From an uncultured Chloroflexia bacterium (GTDB taxonomy: Bacteria > Chloroflexota > Anaerolineae > JAAYZQ01), in contig CAVOXA010000010.1 of assembly GCA_963700285.1 (NCBI GenBank), positions 640,001 to 704,000 on the forward strand: a DNA stretch of 64,000 bases, in the 5' to 3' direction. The translations under genes were made by a program, and so were the position numbers. Positions within the stretch are counted from its first letter, which is position 1. Each line of letters begins with the position of its first letter. The notes under the pieces were generated by a model. It searched no databases. It was not told where the DNA came from and saw only the letters and a program-made list of their open reading frames with translations. Positions 10,681 to 15,010 of this stretch are shown piece after piece.

Positions 10681-12470
10681 TCACCCTTCCAGCCGCGCAT
10701 ACTCCTCGTCGATCACGCTCTCGTCCAGCTTCTTGAACAGCGGCGCCGGCTGGCGCAGCGCCTGCCCCGGCGGCAGTTCACTCGGCGCCCAGGTGCCGAT
10801 GGCCCCGCTGTGGTCGTAGGTCAGCGCCAGGTGGCTGCGCGTCTCTTCCTGGTACTCGACCACGTGCTGCGTGCCAAAGAGCTGGCCGTCGTAGCCCAGG
10901 TACTCGTGGAGCTGCTGCGCCGTGTGGGGCAGGATGGGCGCCAGGATCGTCTTCAGGTTGTCCACGACCCGCAGGATGACGTACACCGTCGTCGCCGCGG
11001 CGGCCTGGTCCTCCTTGATCTGGAACCAGGGCGCCTTGCGGTCCAGGTAGCCGTTGGCCTCGCGGGCCAGGGCCAGCGCCTCGCCCAGGGCGGCGCGGAA
11101 CTTGCAGGCGTCGTACAGGTCGCCCACGGTCTCGAAGCCAGCCTCGACCTTGGCCAGCAGCGCGCGGTCCTCGTCGTCCAGCTCGCCCGGCTCGGCACCT
11201 GGCCGTCAAAGCGCTTGTAGGCAAAGCTCAGCATGCGGTTGGCCAGGTTGCCCCAGGTGGCCACCAGCTCGTTGTTGTTGCGCTCGACGAAATCCTCCCA
11301 GGAGAACTCGGTGTCGCGCGTCTCGGGCGCGATGGCGGTCAGGTAGAAGCGCAGCGGCGTCGGGGTCGTACTTGCTCAGGAAGTAGGGCACGTCCACGGC
11401 ACGCGCCCCGGCTCTTGGAGAACTTGCCCCCTCGAAAGTTCAGATACTCGTTGGCAGGCACATCGTAGGGCAGGTTCAACTGCGCCTCGCAGTCCTCGCA
11501 GTACAGCCGCCCCACGGCCAGCAGCTCCGCCGGCCAGATGACGGTGTGGAAGGGGATGTTGTCCTTGCCGATAAAGTTGTAGATCCGCGCCTCGGGATCG
11601 TACCACCACTCCTGCCAGGCGTCGGGCGTGCCCTGGTTCTTGGCCCACTCGACGCTGGCCGAAAAGTAGCCGATGACCGCCTCGAACCAGACGTAGAGGC
11701 ACTTGCCCTCGTAGCCCGGCAGCGGCATCGGGATGCCCCAGTCGATGTCGCGGGTGATGGGCCGCCCGTGCAGGTCCTTGACATAGTTGCGGGCAAAGTT
11801 GATGACGTTGGGCCGCCAGTGGTCCTTGTCGTCGCAGATAGTCGCCCAGCTCCTCGCTGAGCTTGGCCAGGTCGAGGAAGTAGTGCTCGGTCTCGCGCAG
11901 TCTCCAGGTCGGTGTCGCCGCTGGCCTTGCTGCGCGGGTTGATCAGCTCGGTCGGCTCCAGCAGCTTGCCGCAGTTGTCGCACTGGTCGCCGCGGGCGTC
12001 GGGATAGCCGCAGTGAGGGCACTCGCCCTCCACGTAGCGGTCGGGCAGGAAGCGCCCCTCCTGCGGGCTGTAGAGCTGCTGCTGCACCTCCTTGTACAGG
12101 TAGCCGTTCTCCAGAAGCCGCAGGAAAGATGTCCTGCGAGACCCGGTGGTGGTTCTCGGTGTCGGTGTGGGTGAACAGGTCAAAGGTCAGGCCGATCTGC
12201 TGGTAGGTCTCCAGGAAGGTCTGGTGGTAGCGCTCAAAGATCTCCCGCGGCGAGACGCCCTCCTCGTCGGCGCGGACGGTGATGGGCGTGCCGTGGGCGT
12301 CGGAGCCGGAGACCATCAGCACGTCGTTGCCCATCAGTCGGTGGTAGCGGGCAAAGATATCGGGCGGCAGGTAGGCGCCGGCCAGGTGCCCCAGGTGTTG
12401 GTACGCCGTTGGCGTAGGGCCAGGCCACGCCGATCAGGATTTTGCGGTGTTGCACACCGTTGGCCATCAT
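10681..12470 (-). CDS. metG: Methionyl-tRNA synthetase (short form, Zn knuckle); multiple frameshifts as sequenced
   Basis: [68 protein letters not shown] and KFSKS spread over several frames; RBS AAGGAG. Confidence 0.92.
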
Positions 12471-12483
12471 CGTTCTCCTTTCA

Positions 12484-14354
12484 ATCGAGTAGGGGGCGGC
12501 GGCTAACCGCCCCCTCTCACACCACCGGACATGCGGGTCCGCATCCGGCGGTTCGTCAAGCTTGACGCAGTTGCCGGTATCGCTGCCCAATGCCCTCCAG
12601 CCCCAACTTCTGCCAGTAGGCATTACTCATAGCTTCCTTCACCACCGGTGTTCTGGACATCCGCCACGGACTCGTTCCCACTGCGCCCAGGGCTGCTCGC
12701 TCTCGCGGTACTCCCAAAGCCACTAGCGCTCGGTAGCGGGTCCGTCCCCGTTTCCATCGTTTCCAGACCATCTGCCTCAGCCTGCGTCTTATCCAACTGT
12801 CAAGGCCGTCAAAGACGCTGGGTGTATCTGCCAGTCGAAAGTATCCGATCCAGCCTCGTACATACTGGTTCACTTCTCGGATTACTTCCTCCAGTTTCCC
12901 CGAGCGGGTTCGTCGCGTCAGCCGCCGTAGCCTCCAACGAAAGCGTTGCAGCGATTTGGTTGCGACTCGGATTCGCACTTCTCCCCGGTACTTGTAGAAA
13001 CTAAACCCCAGGAACTTGACCTTACTCGCCCGGTCCACCTTGCTCTTCTGGCGATTCACCTTCAGCTTCAGCTTCTTTTCCAGAAACTGGACCACACTGC
13101 CCATCACTCGCTCACCTGCCCGCCGCGTTTTCACATAGATGTTGCAGTCGTCGGCATACCGCACAAACTTGTGCCCTCGCTTCTCCAGTTCCTTGTCCAG
13201 GTCGTCGAGCATGATGTTCGACAGCAGCGGTGACAGTGGCCCGCCTTGCGGCGTCCCTTCTTCCGTTTCCATCACTACCCCGTTGACCATCACCCCCGAT
13301 TCCAGGTAGGCCCGGATCAGCTTCAGCACTCGTTTGTCTTTCACCACACGCGCCACTCGGGCCATCAGCATATCGTGGTTCACCCGGTCGAAGAACTTTT
13401 CCAGGTCGATATCCACCACCCAGTCGTACCCTTCTTGCACGTACCCCTGGGCCTGCTTCATGGCACCGTGCGCACTCCGCCCTGGTCGAAACCCATAGCT
13501 GTGTGGAGAAAAGTGCGGCTCAAACAGCGGTGTCAGAACTTGGGCTATGGCTTGTTGGATGAAGCGGTCCACCACCGTCGGTATCCCAAGCTGCCGCTCC
13601 CCGCCATCCGGTTTCGGTATCCCTACCCGGCGCACGGGGCTCGGCCGATACCGCCCTCCGTCCAGAGCTTCCCGTATCTCAAGCCAGTGGTTGATGAGGT
13701 ACGGTCGCAGCTCTTCCACCGTCATCCCATCTACCCACGGCGCGCCCCGGTTGCTCTCGACTCGTTGCAGAGCTCGTAGCAAATTCTGTCTTTCCCAGAC
13801 CTGCTCCCACAACCCTACGCCTGCGTTGGATTGCCCTTCGTCTCGTGCCGGAGATTGCTCGACCCTCTGGTCAGTCCCCAGCGGCTTCACCCCCTTCCCC
13901 TGTCCAGTAGTACCCCTATCCGGGGCAGTCTGTCTTCTGGGCTCATCTCGCGAACTGCTCAAAGGTCCTCCTACTTGACGTTCAGCCCTTCCCAGCCAAT
14001 GCAGCTGGTACTATGGCCTCTGCTGACTCCTGCCGCCTCAGCCTGGCCTCTCGACCAGGGTTACCATCTGCATGGCTTGACGGCAGGTCTCCCCAGGTAA
14101 GAACGTTGACTTTCCCTGCACACTTGCCCCATTTACTGCTTTGGCCTTTGATTGCATCGGGCTTCGTTGTCTCTTGCCAACTCGCCCGGCCGCACAGCCT
14201 CCTATGTGGTTCGTGTTCCTCAAGTCGCAGGTTTGCCTCCGGCTTCCTTCAGACCCCGCCTCGACGGCGACGCCCTTGCCCTTGGCTAACGGTTGGTGCA
14301 ATCAACCTCCGTAAGGGACTTTCACCCTCTAGTCAACGCCCATGCTGGGCGCAC
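12484..14354 (-). mobile_element. Group IIC intron, apparently full length
   Basis: 5' GTGCGCCCAGCATGGGCG at 14354, directly after a terminator T-tract; domain V GAACCGCCGGATGCGGACCCGCATGTCCGGTGGTGTGAG; domain VI ending CCCTACTCGAT at 12484. Confidence 0.93.
12556..13962 (-). CDS. ltrA: Group II intron reverse transcriptase/maturase without an endonuclease domain
   Basis: RQLGIPTVVDR, SYGFRPGR, DIDLEKFFD, GTPQGGPLSPLLSNI, RYADD, FLGF, GWIGYF. Confidence 0.95.
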   Translation of the reverse strand: MSSSRDEPRRQTAPDRGTTGQGKGVKPLGTDQRVEQSPARDEGQSNAGVGLWEQVWERQNLLRALQRVESNRGAPWVDGMTVEELRPYLINHWLEIREALDGGRYRPSPVRRVGIPKPDGGERQLGIPTVVDRFIQQAIAQVLTPLFEPHFSPHSYGFRPGRSAHGAMKQAQGYVQEGYDWVVDIDLEKFFDRVNHDMLMARVARVVKDKRVLKLIRAYLESGVMVNGVVMETEEGTPQGGPLSPLLSNIMLDDLDKELEKRGHKFVRYADDCNIYVKTRRAGERVMGSVVQFLEKKLKLKVNRQKSKVDRASKVKFLGFSFYKYRGEVRIRVATKSLQRFRWRLRRLTRRTRSGKLEEVIREVNQYVRGWIGYFRLADTPSVFDGLDSWIRRRLRQMVWKRWKRGRTRYRALVALGVPRERAALGAVGTSPWRMSRTPVVKEAMSNAYWQKLGLEGIGQRYRQLRQA

Positions 14355-14385
14355 AAAAAACGAGCGGGGGGGGGTCCCCTCGCTC
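14355..14385 (-). terminator. Intrinsic terminator in the metG leader (intron target site)
   Basis: GAGCGAGGGG-ACCC-CCCCCCGCTC followed by GTTTTTT. Confidence 0.85.
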
Positions 14386-14437
14386 TGGGTTAGACAGTCT
14401 GAATGGGTTCCGTGCGCGGAACCGGACGGCAAGGGAT

Positions 14438-14548
14438 TCAACCTGGTCTGAACATGGTCTGTGTCTGGGGGAGGGCCCCCATGAAACCCTTCGCCGCCGA
14501 TATCGGGCGGGCAGTATGCTGTTGCCAGTACCTATTCCGGTAGAACAT
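14438..14548 (-). CDS. Putative 36-aa metG leader peptide
   Basis: GAGGAG-ATT-ATG; MFYRNRYWQQHTARPISAAKGFMGALPQTQTMFRPG*; stop codon 52 nt before the terminator hairpin. Confidence 0.5.
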   Translation of the reverse strand: MFYRNRYWQQHTARPISAAKGFMGALPQTQTMFRPG

Positions 14549-14631
14549 AATCTCCTCTACCATTCTGAGATGAGCCCCTTCAGGTTCAGCACTGCCCAGT
14601 TCCTCTCTCCGCAGACTTGCCGGACAACGCC

Positions 14632-14660
14632 ATTCTACCACAGTTCAACAAAGAGCGCAA
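14632..14660 (-). promoter_or_regulatory. Sigma70 promoter of the metG leader
   Basis: TTGCGC-17nt-TAGAAT with an extended -10 TG. Confidence 0.65.
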
Positions 14661-14728
14661 GTACTCACCACAGCGGGCTTTCGAAGCTGAACTGAAGCCC
14701 ACTATCAACCCCAGGGTTTTCGCCCGAG

Positions 14729-15010
14729 TCCCCTGGTCAGCCCACCGGGGCCGCCCTTTTCCGCCAGGCGCAAGCGGGATGCCGAGACAGTCTGGTGCGA
14801 CTCATGGCAGCGCACGAGGGTTTAGTCCACGCCGTCGTGCGGAAGCAGGTCTTGGGCGACCTGCCGTTTGCCGAGGCCTTGCAGGCGGGTCGCCTTGGCT
14901 TGTAGCACGCCATCCTGGGCTTTGATCCCGAGCAGAGAACAGCCTTTTCCACCTACACCTGGACCCCCATTATGCACCACGTCTGGCGAGAGGTCAAGCT
15001 TGCCGAGCCA
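14729..15010 (+). pseudogene. Sigma70 region-2 family relic
   Basis: LFRQAQAGCRDSLVRLMAAHEGLVHAVVR...ALQAGRLGL*HAILGFDPEQRTAFSTY with an in-frame TAG at 14903-14905; no region 4 seen. Confidence 0.65.

Follow-up and report, generated by a model that had tools for sequence, protein, structure and literature searches.

An invariant AUG in a conserved leader peptide upstream of metG in Anaerolineae: a probable Met-tRNA-sensing transcription attenuator

Introduction

How is metG, the gene for methionyl-tRNA synthetase, controlled in a bacterium in which several other synthetase genes are preceded by T-boxes? The question is raised by a 64,000-nt stretch of DNA from an uncultured Chloroflexia bacterium (hereafter the window), on whose minus strand a promoter, a short upstream open reading frame (uORF) and an intrinsic terminator precede metG, with a group II intron between terminator and gene. 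An earlier note on this DNA had proposed a leader-peptide attenuator that senses Met-tRNA through the last AUG of the uORF, and had remarked that Met codons are few for a classical device of this kind. Attenuation of a synthetase through a leader peptide has a precedent in pheM-pheST. Met is an awkward amino acid for such control, because initiation of the leader peptide itself needs Met.

Results and discussion

Leader layout and conservation within the family

Inspection of the sequence confirmed the leader elements on the minus strand (Table 1): the promoter, the GAGGAG sequence, the 36-codon uORF with two internal Met codons, the small hairpin and the terminator lie where the earlier note had placed them. 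The 36-residue peptide has no match in Pfam or NCBIfam. A program scan of the window for promoters and terminators listed neither the leader promoter nor the leader terminator, whose support is conservation.

Table 1. Features of the metG leader, its surroundings and related loci (window positions, or locus handles for other genomes)
Feature	Position or locus	Strand	Basis
sigma-70-type promoter TTGCGC-17-TAGAAT with TG extension (TTGCGC 14660-14655; 17 nt; TAGAAT 14637-14632)	14632..14660	-	sequence; TTGC..TG-n-TA-nn-AT aligned in 17/17 family leaders
VLNLKGLISEW*, the 11 codons left of a RelB-like antitoxin ORF after internal deletion; stop overlaps uORF RBS	14557..14592	-	
Shine-Dalgarno sequence of leader ORF, GAGGAG	14552..14557 (14557-14552)	-	sequence
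36-codon leader ORF MFYRNRYWQQHTARPISAAKGFMGALPQTQTMFRPG	14438..14548	-	frame kept among relatives
R-x-x-S-A-A-K-G motif codons (-9 to -2 from invariant Met)	14486..14509	-	variation mostly synonymous
segment 1 CGGCGGCGAAGGG, predicted anti-antiterminator strand; partner segment 2	14487..14499	-	helix 1:2 in MFE fold
invariant AUG, first internal Met (14482), inferred main control codon	14480..14482	-	17/17 family leaders
short hairpin UGGGGG-CCCU-CCCCCA, starting on U/G of the invariant AUG	14466..14481	-	39/39 leaders
second internal AUG (14455), 5 codons before UGA, likely auxiliary	14453..14455	-	Met enrichment
segment 2 UCCCUUGCCGU, directly 3' of UGA; partner segment 1 or terminator 5' arm	14426..14436	-	
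small hairpin in 2-3 spacer, differing between genomes	14406..14423	-	fold, alignment
intrinsic terminator (stem 14385-14362, U6 14360-14355)	14355..14385	-	two-sided changes at 2/9 pairs
group II intron directly 3' of terminator U-tract	12484..14354	-	Rfam RF02001, RF01998, RF00029
intron RT/maturase ORF	13962-12556	-	Pfam RVT_1 and GIIM
metG, methionyl-tRNA synthetase, in several frames in the assembly	10681..12470	-	Pfam PF09334, PF19303; tblastn with intact relative
Met-cluster leader with terminator before metG, ten other Anaerolineae families	L033, L038-L053, L057, L069, L071, L076, L141-L180		
module as C-terminal tail of upstream gene (genomes G023, G139, G109, G072, G167, G039, G052, in order)	L355, L357, L358, L359, L362, L351, L350		

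Family sets were selected by metG or by overall similarity, never by the motif described below. Among 23 family genomes, a promoter, a uORF of 31-40 codons and a terminator are found in all 16 that have a match to the metG N-terminus; because these 16 have the whole of it, the arrangement goes beyond chance, and the uORF on which the earlier note built its case is conserved in relatives. Two further genomes (G012 and G006) carry the leader unit, and five family genomes, 71-87% complete, have no metG match. The layout has exceptions: the stop codon reads CGA in G011, and the ORF of G015 is cut short after 6 codons.

Nine consecutive C and an A-C mismatch occur in the window terminator, probably through a long-read error; in the same-genus genome G001 the stem is perfect. 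No sequencing run was found to contain half of the window. The four sequencing runs compared, at 85% likeness, represent contigs of relatives and give near-zero cover of 14375-14676.

An invariant AUG between a peptide motif and a hairpin

The first internal Met codon of the uORF (14482) is invariant within R-x-x-S-A-A-K-G-x-M in 17/17 family leaders. These follow an ST-type S-A/T-A-K/T-G-x-M-G pattern with Arg or Trp at -9, and their differences concentrate at third codon positions, the motif codons including AAA/AAG and CGN/AGG alternatives. Over codons -9 to -2, single-base differences are synonymous or non-synonymous in a proportion of 2105:494 in frame, compared with 454:2246 and 215:2435 when the same codons are read out of frame; these counts are pairwise among kin, non-independent and partly circular. 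Likewise, in a set of 39 unique leaders from 60 loci, partly circular in that 22 were picked using the motif, an in-frame start, either SD-led or leaderless, is present in 37, compared with 4 and 3 for the two alternative frames. The distance from Met to stop varies in whole codons and is 12, 13 or 14 in 15/17 family leaders. A short, translated-looking leader ORF with its frame and start kept by conservation thus lies before metG, and it holds a codon for the amino acid of the downstream gene product; conservation at the level of residues extends over about ten positions before the putative stall site.

Three prime of the AUG the pattern is reversed. In the 39-leader comparison GGG and CCC are nearly fixed at third positions, and codon replacements after the AUG (GAG, CGG, CGT) are matched by changes in the partner arm, with both arms of the hairpin replaced in G259, G030 and G052. 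A hairpin beginning on the AUG is present in 39/39 leaders, against 11.9+-2.8 under synonymous randomisation. The third-position bias before the AUG, followed by the reversed pattern and the hairpin after it, indicates on comparative grounds that selection acts on the peptide up to Met and on the RNA hairpin from Met onward. The invariant AUG, the hairpin on it and the helix between segments 1 and 2 described below are features that the earlier note did not contain.

A second Met stands at +6 to +9 in 13/17 family leaders and is absent from those of G003, G015, G019 and G021; Met occupies 17/119 codons at +6 to +12, compared with 2/306 upstream codons. It is also missing from most leaders of other families, and from 23/37 new metagenome leaders among the matches listed. 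A conserved Met codon does exist, in the first internal AUG; the earlier note's choice of the last AUG as the control codon, on the other hand, fails in the relatives that lack it, and this second Met is likely an auxiliary codon. The note had remarked on the small number of Met codons, and there is one invariant AUG and no tandem run or cluster in the window.

The invariant AUG could also be read as a start codon that senses initiation by fMet-tRNA, or the ORF as a means of fixing a constant read-through. An SD-like AAGGG stands 4 nt before the AUG, a spacing too short for a Shine-Dalgarno sequence, and its AAG is changed to AAA or ACG in 12/39 leaders. In T4 gene 32, a hairpin that follows the start codon was observed within the A site (PMC7282821), which speaks for such a start; the codons upstream of the invariant AUG, however, are under peptide-level selection and have starts of their own. 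We consider an internal start or a fixed read-through very improbable.

T-box, SAM and other RNA sensors

Rfam models matched the intron and tRNAs only in the whole window. They gave 0 matches at E<=10 in 14300-14800, so that neither a T-box nor a SAM element is found there. In 20 related loci, a search at E<=1 brought up no relevant model, but two unrelated sub-threshold matches. The same T-box model detects six T-boxes elsewhere in the genome (E 1.7e-19 to 2.1e-11, below the gathering score), five of which precede pheS, thrS, trpS, serS and valS as read from the downstream peptides. The T-box or SAM hit that would have explained the leader otherwise in the eyes of the earlier note is therefore lacking in a genome where the T-box model does match elsewhere. 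As a side observation, the first ORF downstream of the T-box at G000:C1:12858-13171 (L129) is not an obvious synthetase.

Like the T-box riboswitch (RF00230), in which the charging of tRNA decides between terminator and antiterminator in front of synthetase genes, the metG leader combines this kind of target with this kind of switch; unlike it, the leader has no model match and no T-box bulge, and carries a translated-looking uORF. The T-box antiterminator has a UGGN bulge that pairs with tRNA NCCA, and inspection of the alignment by eye found no UGGN bulge in pairing 2:3. A sensor independent of the ribosome, either an atypical T-box in which AUG is the specifier or a site to which MetRS binds, with the ORF incidental, would suit an invariant AUG with conserved structure beside it and a genome that has T-boxes for other synthetases. 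Against it stand the missing Rfam matches and bulge, as well as codon-periodic conservation and frame-specific starts, and we give this explanation hardly any credence.

A proposed four-segment RNA switch

In family leaders, the S-A-A-K-G codons (segment 1) pair with segment 2, and segment 2 may alternatively pair with the terminator 5' arm (pairing 2:3). The antiterminator complementarity in the window, UCCCUUGC (14436-14429) with GCGAGGGG (14383-14376), has the 8 bp and two G-U that the earlier note had given it, and 93% of its cells pair among relatives. All changes in 2:3 are one-sided, by G-U only, with two-sided change at 0/8 pairs and 500/500 shuffles as high; the covariation that the note had hoped for is thus missing from this pairing and present in the terminator. 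Helix 1:2 is 91.9% paired, with two-sided changes at 3/11 pairs. Helix 1:2, AUG hairpin and terminator together contain 11 cells with two-sided changes, versus 3.3+-1.5 when shuffled (0/500 as high), a count that sequence kinship can inflate. In a duplex-against-shuffle test on helix 1:2, 0/19 leaders reached z<=-2, and the fold of the whole window leader is no better than its shuffles (z -1.05).

An intrinsic terminator precedes metG in 17/17 family leaders and in 25/39 overall, with energies of -14.7 to -19.7 kcal/mol in 19 leaders. It is absent from 14/39; 13 of these, when examined, display no consistent RBS switch, and RBS masking or C-rich (Rho-site) sequence gives no consistent signal for the 14.

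Folding states were computed for 19 family-type leaders on the transcript up to the terminator loop, with the ribosome position masked. With the ribosome at the invariant AUG, pairing 2:3 dominates (probability >0.5) in 15/19. At the last Met it dominates in 17/19, the state being identical to that at the invariant AUG where a second Met is lacking. At the stop codon 2:3 is found in 1/19, a result that follows from the mask itself. Without a ribosome, 1:2 dominates in 10/19 and 2:3 in 7/19. In the equilibrium fold of the full transcript the terminator mostly prevails in every ribosome state; because the finished terminator wins at equilibrium, control would have to be kinetic.

Taken together, the comparative data lead us to consider the metG leader as probably a ribosome-mediated transcription attenuator that senses Met-tRNA, with the invariant AUG as its main control codon. 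When Met-tRNA is ample, the ribosome would get to the UGA and cover segment 2, or depart and allow 1:2 to re-form; with segment 2 covered or held in 1:2, the terminator would form and metG would be off. When Met-tRNA is scarce, the ribosome would stall at the invariant AUG (and at the second AUG, if present) and cover segment 1, which would block helix 1:2 and leave segment 2 free to capture the terminator 5' arm, so that metG would be transcribed, in the window through the intron.

As a plain classical attenuator, the leader would be controlled by the near-stop AUG, and the S-A-A-K-G codons and the hairpin would be kept only as RNA, for helix 1:2 and as a polymerase pause hairpin. The frequent second Met of the family, the release of 2:3 by a ribosome at that position and the pairing of segment 1 with segment 2 are all in agreement with this idea. 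Nevertheless, the second Met is absent from the family and metagenome leaders counted above, and the motif varies at third positions and persists in families with quite different downstream RNA, which makes control by the near-stop AUG quite unlikely.

How could a single AUG suffice? In the model of PMC1183508, a single rate-limiting codon affords either poor sensitivity or little read-through, a weakness that would explain the conservation of extra features. Within the proposed attenuator, the peptide motif and the hairpin might lend the single codon sufficient sensitivity, perhaps in the manner of T4 gene 60, where a nascent peptide and a 12-nt hairpin with the A-site codon exclude RF1 and near-cognate tRNA (PMC5462505; PMC7282821). 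Alternatively, the hairpin might exert its effect at the entry channel for mRNA, 3-5 codons before the AUG, for which a spacing of 11-12 nt is described (PMC7282821; entry-channel action some codons earlier also in PMC8861025), or it could be an RNA-polymerase pause.

Met-cluster leaders in sister families

For the sister set, 124 regions upstream of metG were taken from 42 further families of the class, and 62 of these regions contain a terminator. Among the 62, 32 have an in-frame M-x(0-2)-M cluster with a stop codon after it, versus 3.4+-1.9 when shuffled, 3 on the reverse strand and 18/544 control genes of the window's genome. Clustering of this kind is seen for none of 11 other amino acids; Phe is slightly raised (14 vs 6.9+-2.5). 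Examples are MxMPSGAP in family f39 and MMRR..SGA in f14. These leaders are like that of the window in target, position, class and presumed signal; they contain M-M, M-x-M or M-M-M without a common peptide motif, whereas the window type has the motif and one AUG. The two types separate by family, with one overlap. The sister clusters, together with the conserved uORF and terminator, uphold the earlier note's preference for a Met-tRNA-sensing attenuator over a T-box, although not the control codon that it named.

In family f23 (L028-L032), a short hairpin with a U-tract lies right after the promoter, before metG, without a Met ORF; a different control may act at metG there.

The clusters also bear on a further explanation, by which R-x-x-S-A-A-K-G-x-M would be an arrest peptide that responds to a ligand: the ribosome would be stalled by free Met, by SAM or by some other small molecule present in the tunnel, Met would be kept as a residue rather than as a hungry codon, and the same RNA switch would read the stall. 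Residue conservation over about ten codons is enough to reach the tunnel constriction, the module can also stand at the C-terminal end of a long gene upstream (see below), and SAM-induced arrest exists in a plant gene of the Met pathway (PMC3083191). In the family leaders, however, a stall turns metG on, so that a stall caused by Met or SAM would raise MetRS at Met plenty. Plain Met-codon clusters at the same place in sister families, the second Met enriched downstream and the constraint on the residues following Met as RNA, not as peptide, argue likewise against an arrest peptide, which we judge unlikely.

Wider distribution of the module

A degenerate pattern run across all species genomes of GTDB gave 34 matches, of which 29/29 in Chloroflexota lie upstream of metG, against 0/5 elsewhere; Arg at -9, a position outside the search pattern, is present in 27/29 metG-linked matches and 0/5 others. 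The pattern used on metagenomes left out the hairpin 3' arm and found at least 120 loci, 105 of them unique among the matches listed. Among these listed matches, the hairpin is present in all 42 that lie before metG, in 3/53 unlinked ones and in 2 of 10 loci with too little flank.

A covariance model applied to 150 genomes of the class added members in families f2, f18, f22 and f46; of the loci inspected, 15/17 new ones lie before metG, with the AUG kept in 15/15. Applied to 123 metG-anchored regions of the class, a search that omitted L063 (53 nt), the model yielded 16 strong matches and one weak match from other families, the AUG being retained in every one, and on 24 longer loci of the class it found no real match. 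Overall, at least 12 families of Anaerolineae possess the module. With a relaxed motif, 401 genomes of the phylum (including, apart from G000, 48 from the class) contained no metG-linked case outside the class. This motif matched 26 times beyond the window, never upstream of metG by next-ORF reading and once with the hairpin; eight of these matches are the end of a gene preceding another that we take to be recR-like.

Three families, namely f2 (5 genomes) and those of G039 and G052, have the module at the C-terminus of a long gene upstream (Table 1), which in G023 is a GT2 glycosyltransferase. Related genes of G131, G062 and G045 stop at a similar point without the module, a hint that the leader originated from such a gene end or became fused to it.

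This distribution suggests a tentative extension of the proposed attenuator, namely that R-x-x-S-A-A-K-G-x-AUG and the hairpin might constitute a portable single-codon sensor of tRNA charging, in which the peptide would hold the ribosome while Met-tRNA competes with the hairpin over the A-site AUG. Such a module could be combined with terminator switches, with leaders that have no terminator and with the C-terminus of an ordinary upstream enzyme, whose translation would then become the sensor for the next gene. We regard the portable sensor as possible, with clearly less confidence than the attenuator itself.

In a separate observation, L310 has the full leader of motif, hairpin and terminator, with no metG signature in ~300 nt downstream; it is possibly another target or a rearranged locus.

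Comparison with known systems

The metG leader would work like the trp, his and pheST attenuators and shares most of their defining features, with the exception of the control-codon run. In common with trpL, hisL, thrL and pheM-pheST it has a short uORF, a cognate codon in the control region, a predicted 1:2/2:3/3:4 design and an intrinsic terminator, along with a stop codon just 5' of segment 2 and, as in pheST, an aminoacyl-tRNA synthetase as target. It differs from them in its presumed Met specificity, in one invariant codon rather than a run, in the peptide motif and hairpin on the control codon, and in the presence of the module on terminator-less leaders and as an upstream-gene tail. A general attenuation model for leader-peptide systems is given in PMC1183508.

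A likeness for the motif and hairpin is the take-off site of T4 gene 60, in which a nascent-peptide signal also comes right before a codon in the 5' part of a short, GC, A-site-sized hairpin; in that phage gene it is a UAG that is hidden, RF1 and near-cognate tRNA are kept out, and bypassing results (PMC5462505). In the metG leader, by contrast, the codon is AUG, a Met-tRNA-dependent pause is predicted, and folding in the A site is supposed by analogy.

TnaC is a metabolite-sensing arrest peptide. The metG leader resembles it and Arabidopsis CGS1 (PMC3083191) in a residue-conserved motif that ends at the likely stall site, and departs from both in that its direction of control fits starvation, not excess.

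Anaerolineae thus appear to hold two solutions for metG side by side, Met clusters and a single AUG with peptide and hairpin. The single-AUG type departs from the rule by which a large number of control codons is required for sensitive attenuation; its 57-nt element has dozens of natural variants. If true, the portable sensor would be an undescribed route to amino-acid sensitivity from one codon, and the fusion with a glycosyltransferase end suggests that such sensors can hide in annotated genes and escape uORF searches.

A genome-wide attenuator survey by the Lyubetsky group reportedly includes Chloroflexi, and it could list the metG leader. In the literature searched, whose coverage excluded most subscription papers, no Met-sensing leader-peptide attenuator was found described, and the available part of PMC4833913 makes no mention of methionine.

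Intron, metG and neighbouring sequence

Once the intron is removed, the terminator U-tract adjoins UGAAAGGAG, and the same join occurs in G001, which is naturally free of the intron; the earlier note's suggestion that the U-tract would then abut the metG RBS is thereby borne out. The intron is single copy in the genome by blastn, and its ends are matched by the joint 14354-12484 in the sequencing runs, that is, in contigs of relatives. It is IIC-like by position only, assigned on its insertion site after the terminator stem-loop, in line with group IIC introns inserting directly downstream of terminator stem-loops (PMC1702495). Because it adjoins the attenuator terminator, its transcription would depend on read-through, and because the metG RBS sits in the 3' exon, splicing would not be needed for translation. 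The splits in the metG frame are probably long-read errors. Longer inserts between leader and metG are observed in L254-L256 too.

Upstream of the uORF, the antitoxin remnant of the window has a longer counterpart in G001 (L023:2166-2420, minus strand), a RelB-like ORF (Pfam PF18506, E 1.1e-8) between promoter and uORF whose stop likewise overlaps the uORF RBS; no toxin partner lies between promoter and uORF. Further upstream of the promoter, a ~300-nt element (14677-14978) has three more genomic copies at ~95% identity as well as some weaker matches, and all four sequencing runs of relatives' contigs cover it.
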